Positions 1 through 40,125 of a DNA stretch of 64,000 nucleotides are shown here, piece by piece (positions within the stretch are counted from its first letter, which is position 1; each line of letters starts with the position of its first letter). Source of the DNA: Escherichia phage 232Ecol030PP; sequence record PP355090.1; one strand, given 5' to 3'. The notes beneath the pieces are model-generated. The model did not search any database, was not told the DNA's origin, and worked only from the letters and a program-made list of their open reading frames with translations. The translations under genes were made by a program, and so were the position numbers.

Positions 1-410
1 TAAATATTTTTGCCGTAATACTTATACCAGTGTGGCTTCATTAAAATTTTTTCATCGAGTCGTTGTTGACTCAACTTAATAGCTGATTTGCATGGATTAT
101 AATCATTTTTCCATTCTACTGGAATATCGCTGATGTCAGGAACTTCAGTATCTTTTATACTGAACCCGCGTTTTAAGCATTCCGTTATAATGTCCGATTG
201 ACGCTTTCGCAAAAATTCTAACTTATCGTAAAAGAAAGTAACATGACCAGAACCTAAAATAAATTTAGAAGATATTTTAAAATCTTTAACGCGCTTACCG
301 TTTGCCACATGCTTACGAACTATACCAAAAACACGCGGCAATTCACGGTATTCTGCGATTAAATGTTGATCAGCAAGTTCAGATACTAAAGTCAAATTAA
401 TACGAGTCAT
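1..410 (-). CDS. denV: Endonuclease V (pyrimidine dimer DNA glycosylase), 3'-truncated by window edge
   Basis: Minus-strand ATG at 410-408; own translation [29 protein letters not shown]...[10 protein letters not shown] matches T4 DenV as I recall it; stop codon lies beyond position 1, so absent from ORF track. Confidence 0.85.
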
Positions 411-469
411 TTTATCCCTCCAAGTAACTGTGAATATACTATCACAATTCTAGGAGAAAGTAAACAACT

Positions 470-1000
<531 letters not shown>

Positions 1001-3877: not shown

Positions 3878-4166
3878 AGTATTTCCTTAGGTTAATTGAG
3901 ATTTAAAATCCATGAGAGTATTATACTCCGGATAGTTTGTAAACTATTTCAACATCGCCTTTTGCTGCTTTATAACCTTCAGCCCAAGATACAACCGAGT
4001 TTTTATCCGAAGATTCAAATTCTGGCATTGGGCTTTCGCCAATGTTCACGCAGTATGTTTCTTCATTTTCGTCGAACCAAATAATTAAAGTAGTCATTTA
4101 TTTCTCCGTTTTCTGTATTTGTTTTGATAAGTCTATAATAACACCGTCCTTGGCGTTTGTACACAA

Positions 4167-4442
4167 TTATTTCATATTATTGAAATATTCTTCTGCGATT
4201 TCATCGTTATCATGGTAAACTTTAGAAGACAGTTTAACATAACCTTCAGCAGTGAACATGTTAATCACAACCTTTACAGTATACCACTGACCATCTTCAT
4301 TACCCATTACTGCATAGGTTTCAAACATCGGATGGTCAGGACCGATAACTTTAATATCATTCACTGTACGACCGAAATCTTCTGAAACACATTTCATAAA
4401 GAAGTTGAACAGTTCGCCGTAATTATCCATTTCATTCTCCAA
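4167..4442 (-). CDS. Hypothetical protein
   Basis: 91 aa ORF preceded by a GTTTAC -35-like box and TACTAT -10-like box. Confidence 0.6.
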   Translation of the reverse strand: MENEMDNYGELFNFFMKCVSEDFGRTVNDIKVIGPDHPMFETYAVMGNEDGQWYTVKVVINMFTAEGYVKLSSKVYHDNDEIAEEYFNNMK

Positions 4443-4472
4443 GTTGTTTTTGTATCAGTAGTTGATAGTTGT

Positions 4473-4502
4473 ATAGTACCATGGAAGAACAGGGATGTAA
4501 AC
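4473..4502 (-). promoter_or_regulatory. Early-type promoter-like element (GTTTAC -35, 18-nt spacer, TACTAT -10)
   Basis: minus strand reads AAAACTGTTTACATCCCTGTTCTTCCATGGTACTATAC; A-rich upstream tract. Confidence 0.4.
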
Positions 4503-4636
4503 AGTTTTGTGAAAAAATTTTTTAAAAAGTTTTAGGGAATTCTAGGGCAGGGAGGGGCAATTAAAAGATAGGATAATATATTATAAAGGGTAGAAACTAA
4601 ATGATGTCTAGAGAGGCCCGGAAAGGCCTAGATACC

Positions 4637-4666
4637 AAAAAGCCCCAACCTTTCGGTCGGGGCTAA
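4637..4666 (-). terminator. Rho-independent terminator hairpin (copy A of 30-nt repeat)
   Basis: minus strand GCCCCGACC-GAAA-GGTTGGGGC followed by TTTTT, directly after the stop of the 4671..5144 gene. Confidence 0.7.
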
Positions 4667-4670
4667 AATG

Positions 4671-5144
4671 TTATTTGATTTGTTTAGCAGACCAAATGCG
4701 GTCTTTAATAATTTTTTGGATGTCTTCAACATACTCAAGAGAGTGAACATGTGGGTTATCTTTGAAACTATAAGCACGGGCTAACTTTTGGCCTTCGGTT
4801 TTGATTACTAAAAGCTCTTTAAGGATAGCTTCATATTTGGAGATAATTCCTTTAACAATATTTTTCTCTTGTGTGACTTTAGGATCTGCTTTAGGAGCAG
4901 GTTTACCTGAAGCCTTTGCAAAAGCAGCTCCAGTAGCAACTAAACTTTTCCAAGCCATACTAACTGCGTTCCCTGTAAATCCTTCGGCTTTCATATCACG
5001 AGCAAATTGGAATCGTGATTCATCGGAAGCATCTTTATAGGAATATTTACCCGCGGCAATGGCAGCTTTTGCAACAGCTTGAATTTCGGTGCTAGATGCT
5101 TCATTTAACACCGCTTCATTTAAAAATTGAGCATATGATTTCAT
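4671..5144 (-). CDS. Hypothetical late protein with capsid-targeting-sequence-like N-terminus (candidate internal head protein)
   Basis: 157 aa; N-terminus MKSYAQFLNEA resembles the T4 internal-protein CTS (MKTYQEFIAE) including an L-x-E site; own TATAAATA box upstream. Confidence 0.55.
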   Translation of the reverse strand: MKSYAQFLNEAVLNEASSTEIQAVAKAAIAAGKYSYKDASDESRFQFARDMKAEGFTGNAVSMAWKSLVATGAAFAKASGKPAPKADPKVTQEKNIVKGIISKYEAILKELLVIKTEGQKLARAYSFKDNPHVHSLEYVEDIQKIIKDRIWSAKQIK

Positions 5145-5180
5145 CTTATTTCCTGTTTTAATTCGTGGTTTTAATATACT

Positions 5181-5188
5181 TATTTATA
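5181..5188 (-). promoter_or_regulatory. Late promoter box (TATAAATA on minus strand)
   Basis: plus tatttata at 5181-5188, about 37 nt upstream of the ATG at 5144. Confidence 0.55.
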
Positions 5189-5190
5189 CT

Positions 5191-5220
5191 AAAAAGCCCC
5201 AACCTTTCGGTCGGGGCTAA
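5191..5220 (-). terminator. Rho-independent terminator hairpin (copy B of 30-nt repeat), end of tRNA/RNA transcription unit
   Basis: identical 30-mer to 4637-4666; hairpin plus U-tract on minus strand. Confidence 0.7.
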
Positions 5221-5221
5221 G

Positions 5222-5534
5222 CCTTGCGGCAACCTTGTCGGGGTTCCACCTGCTAAGGCAAGTGTTTGTACGAAACGCCGGGATTCGAACCCGGTTATTA
5301 AGCAGTTGACGCTACTCAATATTTTTAAAAGGCCATATCTCGACCATATCCGAACGTTCCGTCAAAAACGCTACTCGGCTTACGGCAAAGATATTTCCTC
5401 GAATCGATAATTCGGTGCGCCGTTTCTGCTGTGATATAAGGGGGCATTAACAAAACATAAAGATTTATTAATGCCAGTCCTTAAACAGGGAACATCAGTC
5501 CGACGACTTGCCGGTAGCGACCCGGCTTCTTGTC
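5222..5534 (-). ncRNA. Putative small stable RNA region downstream of the tRNA array (T4 rnaC/rnaD-like position)
   Basis: ~310 nt without a convincing ORF between tRNA-Arg and the terminator; contains tRNA-like T-arm GGGTTCGAATCCCGG and a long hairpin GGCATTAA...TTAATGCC; exact ends unknown. Confidence 0.4.
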
Positions 5535-5610
5535 TGGTCGAGGCAGTAGGGATCGAACCTACGACCCAGGACTTAGAAGGTCCTTGCTCTTCCTTCTGAG
5601 CTATGCCTCG
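5535..5610 (-). tRNA. tRNA-Arg (anticodon UCU)
   Basis: manual cloverleaf: acceptor CGAGGCA/TGCCTCG, anticodon loop CTTCTAA, T-loop TTCGATC, CCA encoded. Confidence 0.85.
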
Positions 5611-5614
5611 GATT

Positions 5615-5689
5615 TGGCGGACGTGATAGGATTCGAACCTATAACCAATCGCTTAACAGGCGATCGCTCTGCCATTGAGCTACACATCC
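5615..5689 (-). tRNA. tRNA-Asn (anticodon GUU)
   Basis: manual cloverleaf: acceptor GGATGTG/CACGTCC, anticodon stem ATCGC/GCGAT, loop CTGTTAA, T-arm ATAGG-TTCGAAT-CCTAT, CCA encoded. Confidence 0.75.
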
Positions 5690-5693
5690 AAAT

Positions 5694-5780
5694 TGGTGGG
5701 GAGTGATGGAGTCGAACCACCCGAGTCGCAATGACAATGGATTTACAGTCCACACCGCTACCTCTACGGGATAACTCCCC
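5694..5780 (-). tRNA. tRNA-Tyr (anticodon GUA), long variable arm
   Basis: acceptor GGGGAGT/ACTCCCC, anticodon loop CTGTAAA, long variable arm TGTCATTGCGACTCGGG, T-loop TTCGACT; architecture like bacterial tRNA-Tyr. Confidence 0.7.
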
Positions 5781-5789
5781 AAATTAATT

Positions 5790-5864
5790 TGGTGGCCCTG
5801 GGTGGAATTGAACCACCATCTGGCGATTATGAGTCGCTTGCTTGAACCTTCCAGCTACAGGGCC
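5790..5864 (-). tRNA. tRNA with CAU anticodon (Ile by analogy with T4, or Met)
   Basis: acceptor GGCCCTG/CAGGGCC, anticodon loop CTCATAA, T-arm GGTGG-TTCAATT-CCACC. Confidence 0.75.
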
Positions 5865-5865
5865 T

Positions 5866-5941
5866 TGGTGCTGATTGACGGAATCGAACCGCCGACCTTC
5901 TCATTACAAGTGAGTTGCTCTACCTACTGAGCTAAATCAGC
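5866..5941 (-). tRNA. tRNA-Thr (anticodon UGU)
   Basis: acceptor GCTGATT/AATCAGC, anticodon loop CTTGTAA, T-loop TTCGATT. Confidence 0.85.
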
Positions 5942-5946
5942 AAAAC

Positions 5947-6036
5947 TGGCGGAGGCGATAGGATTTGAACCTATGAGTCGCCGGAGCGACTGCCGGTTTT
6001 CAAGACCGGTGCATTAAACCACTCTGCCACGCCTCC
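5947..6036 (-). tRNA. tRNA-Ser (anticodon UGA), long variable arm
   Basis: GGAGGCG...CTTGAAA...long variable arm...ATAGG-TTCAAAT-CCTAT-CGCCTCC-G-CCA. Confidence 0.85.
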
Positions 6037-6039
6037 AGT

Positions 6040-6112
6040 CTCCGTGGCAGGATTTGAACCTACGACATTCTGCTCCCAAAGCAGACGCTCTACCAAACTG
6101 AGCTACACGGAG
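6040..6112 (-). tRNA. tRNA-Pro (anticodon UGG), CCA not encoded
   Basis: acceptor CTCCGTG/CACGGAG, anticodon loop TTTGGGA, T-loop TTCAAAT; 3' end followed by CT then tRNA-Ser. Confidence 0.85.
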
Positions 6113-6122
6113 TAAATTAAAT

Positions 6123-6196
<74 letters not shown>

Positions 6197-6201
6197 AAAT
6201 T

Positions 6202-6288
6202 TGGTGCGAGAAGTGGGACTCGAACCCACAAGGAAATCATTCCGCAGCATTTTAAGTGCTGTGCCTTTACCAATTTGGCCATTCTCGC
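6202..6288 (-). tRNA. tRNA-Leu (anticodon UAA), long variable arm
   Basis: acceptor GCGAGAA/TTCTCGC, anticodon loop CTTAAAA, T-loop TTCGAGT. Confidence 0.85.
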
Positions 6289-6289
6289 G

Positions 6290-6362
6290 CTGGGAATAAA
6301 GGACTCGAACCTTTGCATCCTGGAATCAAAATCCAGTGCCTTACCAACTTGGCTAATTCCCA
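6290..6362 (-). tRNA. tRNA-Gln (anticodon UUG), CCA not encoded
   Basis: acceptor TGGGAAT/ATTCCCA, anticodon loop TTTTGAT, T-loop TTCGAGT. Confidence 0.85.
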
Positions 6363-6459
6363 ATTATTAACAAAGGCTCTTAAGCAAGAACCCTTGATGA
6401 TAGAGGGTATTAATCAGTGCGATATGAGTTAATAATAACAAATAATTCTTAAAGCATAT

Positions 6460-6747
6460 TTACCATTTATAATAATACATATTTACGATGCATTCAAGAC
6501 CCAAAGGATTCTTGAAAATATCATATTCAAGAGGACCTTTTTCTGTTTCAATAAAGAAATCAAAATTTACTGTATTAAATTTACGTTCTTCCTTCACTAA
6601 TTTAACTTGAGAAGATGAACGGTCAATGTAAACCTTTTCAACTTCAAAACATGTTAAAATGCCATAATCATCAATCAAAGCTTTAGCCGCGTCTTGATCA
6701 TATTTATATCCATTTTCAATGGATGATACTTTCGCATAAAGAATCAT
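6460..6747 (-). CDS. Hypothetical protein
   Basis: 95 aa ORF between tRNA cluster and internal-protein-like genes. Confidence 0.55.
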   Translation of the reverse strand: MILYAKVSSIENGYKYDQDAAKALIDDYGILTCFEVEKVYIDRSSSQVKLVKEERKFNTVNFDFFIETEKGPLEYDIFKNPLGLECIVNMYYYKW

Positions 6748-6749
6748 TA

Positions 6750-7148
6750 TCAGCCTTCATCAACAATAGTGTGAGTATTAGCATTTACGATTTGCCACCA
6801 ATCAAAGCGATTAGAATCCATCGGTTTGTTTTCATTTTCTTTGATAATGTCACGGAGTTCATCTTCAGAGAATGCTTTAGCAATTAAATCGGTATACCCA
6901 CCACGGGGATAATAATTATCACCTGCAAACAAAAGGAAATTTACCTTCCCGGAAGCAACATATGCTTCCTTAGGATACTTGTTTCCTGCGTGGTCAACCA
7001 CTTCAATATAACGGTAAGGAATATCGGTTCTTTCAACCCATTGCCATGCCGCCGCAGGGGAATCGAAAGCATCTACACCTAAACGATTATCTTCATCTTT
7101 AGACGGATTATTTTCGTAATCCGCATATACATAATATTCAACGTTCAT
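6750..7148 (-). CDS. Hypothetical protein
   Basis: 132 aa ORF; 3-nt gap to the downstream ORF. Confidence 0.6.
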   Translation of the reverse strand: MNVEYYVYADYENNPSKDEDNRLGVDAFDSPAAAWQWVERTDIPYRYIEVVDHAGNKYPKEAYVASGKVNFLLFAGDNYYPRGGYTDLIAKAFSEDELRDIIKENENKPMDSNRFDWWQIVNANTHTIVDEG

Positions 7149-7333
7149 TATTCACCTTTAGAAATTTTATCCATAACAATAGCAATTAAACCAATTAAAA
7201 ATGCTACTACAAGTGAAAACACATTTTCTGCTGTAGTCAATAATCCACATATAAATCCAACAAACATTGAAAAACTAAAAGCGGAAGCAGAAATTGCAAT
7301 AGCAACATTTCGAATTAATTCACAACGTTTCAT
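7148..7333 (-). CDS. Hypothetical small membrane protein
   Basis: 61 aa, two hydrophobic helices (VAIAISASAFSFSMFVGFICGLL, VVAFLIGLIAIVM); preceded by promoter-like repeat. Confidence 0.5.
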   Translation of the reverse strand: MKRCELIRNVAIAISASAFSFSMFVGFICGLLTTAENVFSLVVAFLIGLIAIVMDKISKGE

Positions 7334-7361
7334 TTTATTCTCCTCAGTAGTAGATAGGGTA

Positions 7362-7391
7362 ATAGTATCACTACCCTATCTAAAAGTAAAC
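7362..7391 (-). promoter_or_regulatory. Early-type promoter-like element embedded in 9-bp inverted repeat (repeat copy 1)
   Basis: minus strand GTTTAC-18nt-TACTAT; inverted repeat GATAGGGTA(7353-7361)/TACCCTATC(7372-7380) brackets the -10-like box. Confidence 0.45.
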
Positions 7392-7625
7392 TTATTTTTT
7401 ACGAAAAATTGATTTATTTTCTGCTGCCCATTTTTCAATAACTGCAGCAGGACCAGTAACAACAATTTTATCACCGTAATCTTCTGCGGCGAGTTGACCG
7501 AAATTATCTAATGCATCACGAAGAACTCCATGAGGCATTTCACCCATTTTATCTTTCTTGCCAGTGTAAATAAACTCAACTTTTACATCAGCAGTTTCAG
7601 CAATAAATTCTTGGTAAGTTTTCAT
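7392..7625 (-). CDS. Internal head protein-like (capsid-targeting sequence MKTYQEFIAE)
   Basis: ORF track gives 7392..7637 (MEIKMKTYQEFIAE...); second Met starts the canonical CTS with an I-A-E cleavage-type site and has a better-spaced RBS, so 7625 is taken as the start. Confidence 0.7.
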   Translation of the reverse strand: MKTYQEFIAETADVKVEFIYTGKKDKMGEMPHGVLRDALDNFGQLAAEDYGDKIVVTGPAAVIEKWAAENKSIFRKK

Positions 7626-7659
7626 TTTGATTTCCATTTGGTTTTGTTTTGATAGGGTA

Positions 7660-7689
7660 ATAGTATCACAACTAAAACCCTATGTAAAC
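7660..7689 (-). promoter_or_regulatory. Early-type promoter-like element (repeat copy 2)
   Basis: minus strand GTTTAC-18nt-TACTAT; conserved core GGGTAATAGTATCAC; inverted-repeat arms ATAGGGT/ACCCTAT. Confidence 0.45.
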
Positions 7690-7701
7690 AACTTTGTGAA
7701 A

Positions 7702-7959
7702 TTATTTTAAATCTTCTAATCGTTTCTTCATCTTAGAACCATTTTTAGCAATTTCTCCTGCATCGGAGCATAATGCTAAAAGTGCTTTAACTTTAGTTTG
7801 GTCTCCTTTAAAAGATGAAGGATCGACCGCAGCAGCAAGTTCTTTAATACGAGAGAAAAGACGCTCAGCTTCAGCTAAAGCCATTCCAAGCTTTACTTCC
7901 ATACCGTGGGAAGATTCAGTGATAGTAGTTTTTGTAGCAAACTCTTTGAAAGTTTTCAT
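7702..7959 (-). CDS. Internal head protein-like (CTS-like N-terminus MKTFKEFATK...ITE)
   Basis: 85 aa; N-terminus follows the M-K-T-(Y/F)-x-E-F pattern; I-T-E site at residues 13-15. Confidence 0.6.
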   Translation of the reverse strand: MKTFKEFATKTTITESSHGMEVKLGMALAEAERLFSRIKELAAAVDPSSFKGDQTKVKALLALCSDAGEIAKNGSKMKKRLEDLK

Positions 7960-7990
7960 TTTTATTTTCCTAATTAATTTTGATGAGGTA

Positions 7991-8020
7991 ATAGTATCAC
8001 TACCTCATCAGTATGTAAAC
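7991..8020 (-). promoter_or_regulatory. Early-type promoter-like element in 10-bp inverted repeat (repeat copy 3)
   Basis: minus strand GTTTAC-18nt-TACTAT; inverted repeat TGATGAGGTA(7981-7990)/TACCTCATCA(8001-8010). Confidence 0.45.
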
Positions 8021-8032
8021 AACTTTGTGAAA

Positions 8033-8717
<685 letters not shown>

Positions 8718-8718
<1 letters not shown>

Positions 8719-9443
8719 TATAGTACCTTTAGTGTATTTTTAATTTTAGAAAAAAGTTCTTCAAGAGAACCATCGTTTGTAATTACTAAATCGCCATCAC
8801 GAATTGGCAATCCAGCTTCTGTAATATGTGTATCATTGGATTTTTGACCAGGACGAACTACATGAATTACTGTAGCACCCATCGCCCTAGCCGCATCCAT
8901 TTCATGATCTTGACGGGTATCAGGAACGATATAATAATCATAACCTGAGTTAAATTTATCAAGATAATCTAAAGCAAATAATTTTACCCAGTACATGCGG
9001 TCGAAGTTATTAACAATCAAATCCGTACCTAGGGCTTGCATCAGACGACGGACTGACCATTGATCTTCAATATTATTTATAACGTCAATAATCTTGTTAA
9101 ATGCTACGGAATTAACTGATTCTTGTCCTTCGTCATCAAAAACAAACACACCTTTAATTGGGCTTTTACCATTAAGATAGCAAAATGCTTGTTCCATAAT
9201 CGTGATTACTTCTAATTTAGTTAGATTTAAATTAGTCTCACGATCATAGTCAATTCCTTCAAACTCTTTACGAGTTAAGCAAGGATAGTCGGTATTTGCT
9301 GCAAATACTCCCCATGCATAAGCCAATGCATCCTTAATAGGACCAGCAAGTTGGTATTTAACTGCAGAATAATTGCTCATGATAAAATCAGCAGTAGTAT
9401 CTTTTCCACTACGCTTTACACCGCTTAAAAAGATTAGTTTCAT
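8718..9443 (-). CDS. 1: Deoxynucleoside monophosphate kinase
   Basis: 241 aa; P-loop GVKRSGKDT; matches T4 gp1 length and order. Confidence 0.92.
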
Positions 9444-36398: not shown

Positions 36399-36399
<1 letters not shown>

Positions 36400-36638
36400 T
36401 GGAAGGTTTAATTGAAGCTATTAAATCAAACGACCTCGTAGCCGCTCGTAAATTATTTGCTGAAGCCATGGCTGCAAGAACGACTGATTTAATTAAAGAA
36501 GAAAAAATCGCTATCGCTCGTAATTTCTTAATCGAAGGTGAAGAACCTGATGACGAGGATGATGACGAAGACGAAGATAGTGATGATAAAGACGACAAAA
36601 AAGACAAAGACTCTGACGAAGACGAGGATGATGAATAA
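36399..36638 (+). CDS. 67: Prohead core protein gp67
   Basis: 79 aa with acidic C-terminal tract. Confidence 0.9.
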
Positions 36639-37063
36639 TGCTTCTGATCCCTGAAACTCATGAATTAGTTCTCGAGAATGTCGAAGCACTTATTCCTGAA
36701 GCACAGGGTCGCTTTGACGAATTGTCTTCTGCTTTAAATAAAGACGATATAAATACAATTGTCGAGAATATGCTTGATGATGAAACTGATTTAGCGGTTG
36801 CATTAGCTTCTATTAATGAAAATATGCCGTTAAATGAATTTATCGTTAAACATGTTTCTGCCCGTGGTGAAATTACTCGCACTAAAGATCGCAAAACCCG
36901 CGAACGTAATGCATTTCAAACTACCGGGTTGTCTAAAGCAAAACGTAGACAAATTGCTCGTAAAGCTACCAAAACGAAGATTGCCAATCCAGCAGGTCAA
37001 TCTCGTGCTCAGCGTAAGCGTAAAAAAGCTCTTAAACGTCGTAAAGCATTAGGATTAAGCTAA
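36638..37063 (+). CDS. 68: Prohead core protein gp68
   Basis: 141 aa, basic C-terminus. Confidence 0.9.
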
Positions 37064-37701
37064 TGAATGAACCCCAATTACTAATTGAAACTTGGGGTCA
37101 ACCTGGCGAAATTATTGATGGCGTACCAATGCTTGAATCTCATGATGGAAAAGACTTAGGTTTAAAACCGGGTTTATACATCGAAGGAATATTCATGCAA
37201 GCGGAAGTTGTCAATAGAAATAAACGTCTTTATCCAAAACGTATATTAGAAAAAGCGGTAAAAGACTATATTAATGAGCAAGTTTTAACTAAACAAGCTC
37301 TCGGAGAATTAAATCATCCTCCACGCGCTAATGTTGACCCGATGCAAGCCGCTATCATTATAGAAGATATGTGGTGGAAAGGAAATGACGTATACGGACG
37401 AGCTCGTGTTATTGAAGGTGACCACGGTCCTGGAGATAAATTAGCAGCTAATATTCGTGCCGGATGGATTCCAGGAGTTTCTTCTCGTGGATTAGGTTCA
37501 TTGACTGACACAAATAAAGGTTATCGTATCGTAAACGAAGGATTCAAATTAACTGTAGGTGTTGATGCAGTATGGGGTCCAAGTGCTCCAGATGCATGGG
37601 TAACTCCTAAGGAAATTACAGAATCACAGACGGCGGAAGCCGATACAAGTGCCGATGACGCCTATATGGCTCTCGCAGAGGCCATGAAAAAAGCGTTATA
37701 A
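37063..37701 (+). CDS. 21: Prohead core protease gp21
   Basis: 212 aa. Confidence 0.95.
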   Translation: MNEPQLLIETWGQPGEIIDGVPMLESHDGKDLGLKPGLYIEGIFMQAEVVNRNKRLYPKRILEKAVKDYINEQVLTKQALGELNHPPRANVDPMQAAIIIEDMWWKGNDVYGRARVIEGDHGPGDKLAANIRAGWIPGVSSRGLGSLTDTNKGYRIVNEGFKLTVGVDAVWGPSAPDAWVTPKEITESQTAEADTSADDAYMALAEAMKKAL

Positions 37702-37731: not shown

Positions 37732-38541
37732 ATGCTTAAAGAACAACTGATTGCCGAAGCGCAGAAAATTGATGCTTCCGTTGCTCTTGATAGTATTTTC
37801 GAATCAGTTAATATTTCTCCGGAAGCAAAAGAAACTTTCGGCACTGTATTCGAAGCTACCGTCAAGCAGCACGCCGTTAAATTAGCTGAATCTCATATCG
37901 CTAAAATTGCTGAAAAAGCAGAAGAAGAAGTAGAAAAAAATAAAGAAGAAGCAGAAGAAAAAGCTGAGAAGAAAATCGCTGAGCAAGCTTCTAAATTCCT
38001 TGACCATCTTGCAAAAGAATGGCTCACTGAAAATAAATTAGCAGTAGATAAAGGTATCAAAGCCGAACTGTTTGAATCCATGCTTGGTGGATTGAAAGAG
38101 CTCTTCGTTGAACACAACGTTGTTGTTCCAGAAGAATCAGTTGATGTTGTAGCTGAAATGGAAGAAGAACTGCAAGAACATAAAGAAGAATCAGCTCGTC
38201 TGTTCGAAGAACTCAATAAGCGTGACGCATATATCAATTATGTGCAGCGTGAAGTGGCATTGAGCGAAAGTACTAAAGATCTGACTGAGTCTCAAAAAGA
38301 AAAAGTCTCTGCTCTGGTCGAAGGTATGGATTATTCAGATGCATTCTCAAGTAAATTGAGTGCAATCGTAGAAATGGTGAAGAAATCTAATAAAGATGAA
38401 AGCACTATTACTGAGAGTATAAATACTCCTGATACTGAAGCAGCCGGACTGAATTTCGTCACTGAAGCTGTAGAAGATAAATCTGCACAAGGTGCAGAAG
38501 ATATTGTAAGTGTATATGCGAAAGTCGCATCTCGTTTCTAA
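37732..38541 (+). CDS. 22: Prohead core scaffold protein gp22
   Basis: 269 aa, highly charged coiled coil. Confidence 0.95.
   Translation: MLKEQLIAEAQKIDASVALDSIFESVNISPEAKETFGTVFEATVKQHAVKLAESHIAKIAEKAEEEVEKNKEEAEEKAEKKIAEQASKFLDHLAKEWLTENKLAVDKGIKAELFESMLGGLKELFVEHNVVVPEESVDVVAEMEEELQEHKEESARLFEELNKRDAYINYVQREVALSESTKDLTESQKEKVSALVEGMDYSDAFSSKLSAIVEMVKKSNKDESTITESINTPDTEAAGLNFVTEAVEDKSAQGAEDIVSVYAKVASRF
38418..38425 (+). promoter_or_regulatory. Candidate late promoter TATAAATA inside gene 22, upstream of gene 23
   Basis: exact TATAAATA about 135 nt upstream of the gene 23 ATG; no other exact box between genes 22 and 23. Confidence 0.35.
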
Positions 38542-38559: not shown

Positions 38560-40125
38560 ATGACTATCAAAACTAAAGCTGAACTTTTGAACAAATGGAA
38601 GCCATTACTGGAAGGTGAAGGTTTACCGGAAATTGCTAATAGCAAACAAGCGATTATCGCTAAAATCTTTGAAAACCAGGAAAAAGATTTCCAGACAGCT
38701 CCGGAATATAAAGACGAAAAAATTGCTCAGGCATTCGGTTCTTTCTTAACAGAAGCTGAAATCGGTGGTGACCACGGTTACAATGCTACCAACATCGCTG
38801 CAGGTCAGACTTCTGGAGCAGTAACTCAGATTGGCCCAGCTGTTATGGGTATGGTACGTCGTGCTATTCCTAACCTGATTGCTTTCGATATTTGTGGTGT
38901 TCAGCCAATGAACAGCCCGACTGGCCAGGTATTCGCACTGCGCGCAGTATATGGTAAAGACCCAATCGCTTCCGGTGCTAAAGAAGCATTCCACCCAATG
39001 TATGGTCCAGATGCAATGTTCTCTGGTCAGGGTGCTGCTAAGAAATTCGCTGCTTTGAAAGCAAGTGATACTCTTGAAGTCGGAACTATTTACACTCACT
39101 TCTTCCAGGAAACTGGTACAGTATATCTGCAAGCTACAGCAGCTAAACAAATTAATTCAGGCGCATCTGACGCAGACAAATTAGATGCTGAAATTAAGAA
39201 ACAAATGGAAGCTGGTGTACTGGTAGAAATCGCTGAAGGTATGGCTACTTCTATCGCTGAACTTCAAGAAGGTTTTAACGGTTCTACCGATAACCCGTGG
39301 AATGAAATGGGCTTCCGTATCGATAAACAAGTTATCGAAGCTAAATCTCGTCAGCTGAAAGCTGCTTACTCTATTGAATTAGCACAAGACCTCCGCGCTG
39401 TTCACGGTATGGATGCTGATGCTGAACTGTCTGGTATTCTGGCTACAGAAATTATGCTGGAAATCAACCGTGAAGTTGTTGATTGGATTAACTACTCCGC
39501 TCAGGTTGGTAAATCTGGTATGACCCTGACTCCGGGTTCTAAAGCTGGTGTATTTGACTTCCAGGACCCAATCGATATTCGTGGTGCTCGCTGGGCAGGT
39601 GAATCCTTTAAAGCTCTGTTGTTCCAGATTGACAAAGAAGCAGTTGAAATTGCTCGTCAGACTGGTCGCGGCGAAGGTAACTTCATTATCGCTTCCCGTA
39701 ACGTAGTTAACGTTCTGGCTTCAGTTGATACCGGCATTTCTTATGCTGCACAAGGTCTGGCTACTGGCTTTAACACTGATACTACCAAGTCAGTATTTGC
39801 TGGTGTTCTGGGTGGTAAATACCGTGTATATATCGACCAGTATGCTAAACAGGATTATTTCACCGTAGGTTATAAAGGTCCGAACGAAATGGATGCTGGT
39901 ATTTACTATGCTCCATATGTAGCTCTGACTCCGCTGCGTGGTTCTGATCCGAAGAACTTCCAACCGGTAATGGGATTCAAAACTCGTTACGGTATCGGTA
40001 TCAACCCATTTGCAGAATCCGCTGCTCAGGCTCCGGCTTCTCGCATCCAGAGCGGTATGCCTTCTATTCTGAATAGCCTTGGTAAAAACGCTTACTTTAG
40101 ACGTGTATATGTTAAAGGTATCTAA
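38560..40125 (+). CDS. 23: Major capsid protein gp23
   Basis: 521 aa. Confidence 0.97.
   Translation: MTIKTKAELLNKWKPLLEGEGLPEIANSKQAIIAKIFENQEKDFQTAPEYKDEKIAQAFGSFLTEAEIGGDHGYNATNIAAGQTSGAVTQIGPAVMGMVRRAIPNLIAFDICGVQPMNSPTGQVFALRAVYGKDPIASGAKEAFHPMYGPDAMFSGQGAAKKFAALKASDTLEVGTIYTHFFQETGTVYLQATAAKQINSGASDADKLDAEIKKQMEAGVLVEIAEGMATSIAELQEGFNGSTDNPWNEMGFRIDKQVIEAKSRQLKAAYSIELAQDLRAVHGMDADAELSGILATEIMLEINREVVDWINYSAQVGKSGMTLTPGSKAGVFDFQDPIDIRGARWAGESFKALLFQIDKEAVEIARQTGRGEGNFIIASRNVVNVLASVDTGISYAAQGLATGFNTDTTKSVFAGVLGGKYRVYIDQYAKQDYFTVGYKGPNEMDAGIYYAPYVALTPLRGSDPKNFQPVMGFKTRYGIGINPFAESAAQAPASRIQSGMPSILNSLGKNAYFRRVYVKGI

Follow-up and report, generated by a model that had tools for sequence, protein, structure and literature searches.

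The ipI locus of a T4-like Escherichia phage is a T6-type ip5/ip6 allele encoding two candidate injected anti-defence proteins

The window analysed here is a stretch of 64,000 nucleotides from Escherichia phage 232Ecol030PP (PP355090.1). The source phage is T4-like and belongs to the genus Tequatrovirus; the nearest records to the first 25 kb of the window are several Escherichia phage genomes, with 99.1% identity. There are 10 tRNA genes at 5535-6362, and an Rfam search of 4000-8600 returned nothing beyond these ten. The gap between tRNA-Gln (6289-6362) and gene 57B (8033-8491) is filled by five ORFs, all on the minus strand, in agreement with the original prediction of five small genes between the tRNA array and 57B. 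The genes of this region are as follows.

6460-6747, minus strand: trna.2 homologue, 95 aa
6750-7148, minus strand: trna.3 homologue, 132 aa
7148-7333, minus strand: trna.4 homologue, 61 aa, hydrophobic, putative membrane protein
7392-7625, minus strand: ip6, Ip6 precursor, 77 aa
7702-7959, minus strand: ip5, Ip5 precursor, 85 aa
8033-8491, minus strand: 57B, anti-CBASS nuclease Acb1 (Pfam PF23474 Acb1, E = 2.7e-60)

The 57B protein has 100% identity with T4 57B, and the gene forms the conserved upstream border of a variable slot. At the other end of the region, the 61-aa protein has 100% identity with the product of T4 trna.4 (PHROG 1692), which is annotated in T6 as a putative membrane protein; the 132-aa protein has 64% identity with the product of trna.3 (E = 4e-54; PHROG 1411) and the 95-aa protein 94% with that of trna.2 (PHROG 2023). 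Their order beside tRNA-Gln, trna.4-trna.3-trna.2, is that of T4. It had been stated that these three proteins have no recognisable family; since all three are homologous to T4 genes, their family is recognised, and they are conserved rather than hypervariable. By homology, trna.4, trna.3 and trna.2 are conserved early genes outside the variable cassette, so that of the hypervariable locus initially drawn at 6460-8030 only 7334-8032 can be retained as variable. This part corresponds to the position of ipI in T4, where the order is 57B, ipI, trna.4, trna.3, trna.2, tRNA-Gln, as the original prediction had stated. Scanned against Pfam and NCBIfam, none of the five proteins had a match above threshold; a DUF5092 match of the trna.2 product (E = 0.004) lay under the cut-off and was dismissed. 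A pulldown of the DRT1 defence protein enriched T4 Trna.2 (PMC13275509).

The two genes in the variable part can be named. With 100% identity to its namesakes in RB15, T6 and PST, the 85-aa protein is Ip5, and the 77-aa protein has 98.7% identity with T6 Ip6 and 94.8% with PST IpVI; the BLASTP comparison with T-even Ips that had been proposed as a check is therefore positive for both. The Ip5 family, PHROG 3499, is named 'internal head protein', Ip6 matches PHROG 8111, 'internal virion protein' (E = 1e-52), and the public annotation of both genes is ip5/ip6 or 'internal head/virion protein'. The ip6 ORF has an alternative ATG upstream, at 7637, which would give 81 aa; homologues begin at MKTYQEF. 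Ip5 is found at 80% identity or more in 268 phage records and Ip6 in 245 records, 230 of these with at least 60% identity. In a collection of 5.8 billion proteins, only close phage relatives were found (5 for Ip5 and 11 for Ip6), and the alignments available for structure models of the two proteins are consequently shallow.

The allele as a whole is widespread. The region 6300-8100 is 100% identical to phages vB_EcoM_G9062, PYps35T, a15 and ECML-123-2, and 204 records each cover at least 80% of this 1.8 kb. T6 has the same gene order, 57B-ip5-ip6-trna.4-trna.3-trna.2, with identical flanking cassettes; the sole difference at the locus is one residue of Ip6, whereas the surrounding genome is that of a different Tequatrovirus isolate. 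Judged from these alignments, the locus is a T6-type allele of the ipI locus of T-even phages, composed of two self-contained cassettes, ip5 and ip6. A 157-aa leader-bearing ORF at 4671-5144, considered as Ip4 because of its equal length, is unrelated to Ip4 and was rejected.

Both proteins begin with a leader of the type that T4 internal proteins carry. The Ip6 leader, MKTYQEFIAE, is identical at 10 of 10 positions to the starts of T4 IPII and IPIII, and the Ip5 leader, MKTFKEFATKTTITE, parallels the T4 IPI leader, MKTFKEFTSTTTPVSTITE, so that the two N-termini had been correctly read as T4 capsid targeting sequences ending in (I/L)-x-E. The ends of the capsid targeting sequences are ITE in Ip5 (residue 15) and IAE in Ip6 (residue 10). 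When all six frames of the 64-kb window were scanned for the pattern MK[TS][YF]...[LIV]xE at the head of ORFs of at least 40 codons, three matches were obtained, all on the coding strand and all adjoining the tRNA array, which argues that the leaders of Ip5 and Ip6 are not due to chance. The leader is conserved in Ip6 homologues down to 78% identity. Foreign proteins can be packaged by means of the IP leader alone (PMC3012670).

The protease that would process these leaders, gp21, is encoded in the window among the head genes.

36399-36638: gp67
37063-37701, plus strand: gene 21, prohead core serine protease (Pfam PF03420 Peptidase_S77, E = 1.5e-111)
37732-38541: gp22 scaffold
38560-40125: gp23

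By analogy with T4, gp21 would cut the leaders of Ip5 and Ip6 after (L/I)xE. The predicted cut after E15 of Ip5 leaves a mature protein of 70 aa (7.5 kDa, pI 9.2), and that after E10 of Ip6 one of 67 aa (7.4 kDa, pI 6.5); mature Ip6 is thus near neutral, whereas the T4 IPs are basic. An Ip5 paralogue of phage slur03, only 48% identical, has an LNE site at residues 13-15, the same position, which supports the predicted cleavage of Ip5 after E15. Concerning packaging, the IpI-type protein g146, the single Ip in the slot of phage fD1, was virion-associated by LC-MS/MS (PMC8309999); the permissive list of 113 proteins in that virion proteome contains thymidine kinase and DenV among others, so it argues only weakly for packaging.

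The content of the slot between 57B and trna.4 was compared between phages.

T4, phiD1: IpI
RB51: Ip5 alone
RB18: Ip6 alone
T2: Ip5 + Ip7
RB15: Ip5-Ip9-Ip7-Ip8
T6, PST, window: Ip5 + Ip6

Both ip genes of the window thus lie inside a polymorphic IP locus that holds none to four Ip genes in different phages, and the expectation that related phages have different small proteins here is borne out. With the two conserved flanks joined as query, the distance between them was shortest, in a sample of 60 of the 754 matching records, in slur04, where the slot is apparently empty and measures about 70 nt, and reached about 910 nt at most. Relatives of Ip5 are also present at the other IP locus, e-denV, which is empty in the window phage.

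Each gene of the variable part, and trna.4 below it, is preceded by a copy of a promoter/inverted-repeat cassette.

7960-8032, minus strand: cassette upstream of ip5; TTTACA-N17-TACTAT with TG extension at 8019-7991; 13-bp stem at 7978-8012
7626-7701, minus strand: cassette upstream of ip6; TTTACA-N17-TACTAT with TG extension at 7688-7660; imperfect stem
7334-7391, minus strand: cassette upstream of trna.4; 14-bp stem at 7349-7385; downstream border of the variable slot

The three copies form the repeat D1 (7349-7419, 7647-7717 and 7978-8048), and in all of them the -10 hexamer is overlapped by the inverted repeat. In front of trna.4 the promoter is a weaker version, unreported by the promoter scan. 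In fold computations, the stems upstream of ip5 (-17.4 kcal/mol, z -5.9) and trna.4 (-18.5 kcal/mol, z -5.4) are perfect, and that upstream of ip6 is imperfect (-11.4 kcal/mol).

Alignment with T4 places these cassettes at the points where the alignability of the two phages ends. The ip5 cassette agrees in every base with the sequence in front of T4 ipI. Of the T4 trna.4 cassette, the 5' part is matched by the copy that precedes ip6 and the 3' part by the copy that precedes trna.4 in the window; this T4 cassette therefore appears split around ip6, the pattern expected from recombination within the repeats. These alignments suggest that the inverted-repeat promoter cassettes are likely a recombination substrate, and that the content of the slot is exchanged by recombination inside conserved cassettes of roughly 60-75 bp. 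Flanks of about 70 bp, in which an inverted repeat overlaps an early promoter, were reportedly described by Repoila et al. 1994 as a defining trait of the locus.

The cassettes fit the model of the PeSL cassettes of T4-like phages (Arbiol 2010; Comeau 2014, PMC4122927), which also consist of repeated early promoters (TTTACW-N17-TAYWAT) with a stem-loop and, like those of the window, mark the borders at which related phages differ in gene content. They differ in the stem-loop, which in PeSL is a separate upstream terminator, whereas the inverted repeat of the window overlaps the -10 hexamer. Comeau, Arbiol and Krisch themselves remarked that the IP locus had given 'similar observations' 20 years before (PMC4122927).

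The promoter scan places each ip gene behind its own sigma-70-type early promoter. The late-promoter consensus TATAAATA was not found directly upstream of ip5 or ip6; the nearest upstream late promoter is the T4 consensus TATAAATA at 9074-9081 on the minus strand, within gene 1. In T4, too, gene 1 contains TATAAATA at the corresponding position, and the motif is missing immediately before ipI. As the two genes have no late promoter of their own, their late expression would depend on read-through from 9074-9081 via 57A-57B-ip5-ip6. Such read-through is plausible, and no terminator-like site was found in 6300-8600.

What is known of function comes from the T4 proteins. Ip1, Ip2 and Ip3 of T4 are injected, and each has its own GmrSD type IV restriction enzyme that it blocks, without cross-protection (PMC12373910), which agrees with the statement in the original prediction that the ipI product is injected and blocks a host restriction system. 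Many further Ips are known from their leader sequence only (PMC12373910). T4 IPI (IPI*), which is injected and inhibits the type IV GmrSD enzyme of E. coli CT596, is encoded in the same slot, behind the identical upstream cassette, and shares the long leader type (MKTFKEF...ITE) with Ip5. IPII and IPIII are also injected, inhibit GmrSD-ECOR21 and GmrSD-ECOR17, and share the 10-residue leader with Ip6, but they are encoded at the e-denV locus.

The likeness ends with the leader. In BLASTP comparisons of Ip5 and Ip6 with the T4 IPs, the leaders alone align, and the mature parts have no detectable similarity to IPI, the target of which is known, or to IPII and IPIII. A PDB sequence search with Ip5 and Ip6 returned nothing meaningful. 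Structure prediction, which had been proposed as a further check, did yield models, although without an informative match: from its shallow alignment, Ip5 is modelled as a helical hairpin (pLDDT 72) for which no structural match was significant, and Ip6, also from a shallow alignment, as a small alpha/beta protein with a ferredoxin-like fold (AF2, pLDDT 81) with generic matches only. The predicted folds are uninformative on function.

We consider it probable that the locus is best explained, as a whole, as a T6-type ip5/ip6 allele whose products are packaged, injected and block a nuclease, and whose genes are shuffled as cassettes. By identity with known Ips and by analogy with T4, we infer that Ip5 and Ip6 are almost certainly packaged in the head and injected with the DNA. 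As for T4 IPI, IPII and IPIII, the leader would direct each precursor to the prohead's scaffolding core, where gp21 would remove it to leave proteins of about 7.5 kDa; the mature proteins would remain in the head with the DNA and be injected together with it. Co-injection would allow Ip5 and Ip6 to act ahead of any phage gene expression. By the same analogy, they most likely act by binding one particular nuclease of the host, an enzyme directed against DNA with glucosylated hydroxymethylcytosine, and blocking it. Both are thus candidate injected anti-defence proteins, as originally suggested, a view with which their Ip annotation, PHROGs 3499 and 8111 and the precedent of the T4 Ips (PMC12373910) agree.

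A 2025 study of ip4-10 against a GmrSD panel found no reproducible inhibition of any GmrSD tested (PMC12373910), and T2 (Ip5 + Ip7) and T6 (Ip5 + Ip6) are both restricted by GmrSD-ECOR21 and GmrSD-ECOR17 (PMC12373910). Since T6 carries Ip5 and Ip6 and is restricted nevertheless, the two proteins do not neutralise these two enzymes at their natural dose, and together the results leave a GmrSD target for Ip5 and Ip6 unproven and perhaps wrong. The proteins may instead be packaged and injected but target a defence that does not belong to the GmrSD family, for example another sensor or nuclease of modified DNA, a Brig-type DNA glycosylase or an unrelated early-acting system. The lack of similarity between mature Ip5 and Ip6 and Ip1-3 points the same way, as does the neighbouring 57B, an anti-CBASS enzyme, which indicates that the region is not devoted to one type of defence. 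We rate this reading as possible but rather doubtful, because all three Ips with known targets act on GmrSD enzymes, and because GmrSD is very diverse, with 20 common enterobacterial clusters of which some only were active in the assay (PMC12373910); a GmrSD variant outside the panel is the simplest guess.

A mainly structural role, in which Ip5 and Ip6 would be small components of the prohead core that fill the head or condense DNA and have no specific target in the host, would be in line with the about 1000 internal protein molecules that T4 heads hold embedded in DNA (PMC3012670), with the basic pI of mature Ip5 and with the failure of the published GmrSD panel to yield a target. It is nevertheless unlikely: mature Ip6 lacks a basic pI, each of the three T4 Ips turned out to be a specific inhibitor, and among otherwise near-identical phages the slot holds none to four unrelated genes and looks empty in slur04, a variability that fits accessory genes and not a structural need. 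Still less credible, and in our view very improbable, is that Ip5 and Ip6 are ordinary early cytoplasmic proteins that stay out of the head and carry their leader-like N-termini as relics of cassette shuffling. The early-type promoter of each gene and the absence of a late-promoter consensus of its own would suit such proteins, but T4 ipI likewise has no TATAAATA directly upstream, stands behind the identical cassette and encodes an established packaged and injected protein (PMC12373910). Furthermore, the leader is intact in all homologues of Ip5 and Ip6 while the mature regions drift, and even the 48%-identical Ip5 paralogue retains the position of the cleavage site.

The ip5 and ip6 genes, their leaders, the variable slot and the idea of shuffling are already known, all having been described previously. 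The paper for the ip genes, deposited in GenBank under these names decades ago, is reportedly Repoila et al. 1994. The model phage T6 and about 200 sequenced phages have the ip5/ip6 locus in essentially the same form, and a 2025 study had already raised, and in part tested, the question of the targets of Ip5 and Ip6 (PMC12373910); on these targets the window adds nothing new. The locus illustrates clearly the exchange, among T4-like phages, of cassettes encoding pre-packaged anti-defence proteins. As the same proteins are found in T6 and in hundreds of isolates, knowing their targets would help to explain host range. If the target does lie outside the GmrSD family, for example a glycosylase, a different sensor for modified phage DNA or a system already triggered within the first minute of infection, the IP slot of T-even phages would be a general platform for the delivery of pre-made anti-defence proteins and not an anti-GmrSD toolkit.

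The 157-aa ORF at positions 4671-5144 may be an unnamed internal protein (Ip) and, as such, would constitute a third IP locus, in addition to the variable Ip slot between 57B and trna.4 and the interval between e and denV known from T4. The features of this locus are as follows.

4671-5144, minus strand: 157-aa ORF with a capsid-targeting-like leader, N-terminus MKSYAQFLNEAVLNEA, with two LNE|A sites
5181-5188: T4 late-promoter consensus TATAAATA, 36 nt upstream of the ORF
4632-4666 and 5186-5220: terminator hairpins flanking the ORF, 97% identical to each other (-20.3 kcal/mol)

The corresponding position in T4 is that of rnaC/rnaD and, because the hairpin pair lies on both sides of the ORF, the locus looks like a cassette inserted there. 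Homologues are present in 511 phage records; in a sample of 30 of these, all were annotated as 'hypothetical' or not at all. The closely related RB51ORF140 (98% identity) carries the gene name RB32ORF132c in its annotation. A more distant homologue, from a Klebsiella Jiaodavirus (51% identity), has the N-terminus MKFKEFLAE|A and also adjoins tRNA genes. The homologue g140 of phage fD1 was found in virions, but the virion protein list is permissive. Ip4, considered as a possible identity of the ORF, was ruled out, the two sequences being unrelated. Ip4 itself is encoded downstream of denV in some relatives, at a position that corresponds to sequence beyond the window.

The left end of the window (1-964) contains two genes.

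left end of the window, running past its edge: denV
470-964: lysozyme gene e

Since denV directly follows e, the window has no gene in the e-denV interval, where T4 carries ipIII and ipII; this interval is likewise empty in the relatives vB_EcoM_G9062 (G9062) and phiD1.

The tRNA genes form an array.

5535-6362, minus strand: ten tRNA genes

The T4 array consists of eight tRNA genes with segB inserted among them, whereas the array of the window lacks this homing endonuclease gene; its extra tRNAs are Asn, Tyr and one with a CAU anticodon. The latter, called as Met(CAU), may be of the Ile(CAU) type, as noted for its counterpart in the RB51 annotation. The 'tRNA-OTHER' of the G9062 RefSeq record (locus L002 1968-2063) corresponds to window 5221-5534, especially about 5267-5362; neither ARAGORN nor Rfam gave a call in 5221-5534, and the corresponding place in T4 is taken by rnaC and rnaD, two small stable RNAs.

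The ORF at 6460-6747 (minus strand) is 94% identical to T4 Trna.2. Only two T4 proteins, Trna.2 and Inh, were enriched in a pulldown with the defence reverse transcriptase DRT1 (PMC13275509). The recovery of Trna.2 may offer a clue to what trna.2 does. Inh inhibits the gp21 protease.

The variable Ip slot is bordered by 57B.

8033-8491, minus strand: 57B, matching Pfam Acb1 (E = 2.7e-60)

Its product is 100% identical to that of T4. Many records annotate 57B as 'RNA ligase'; the Pfam match is instead to Acb1, an anti-CBASS nuclease, and the Ip slot therefore lies directly downstream of another counter-defence gene.
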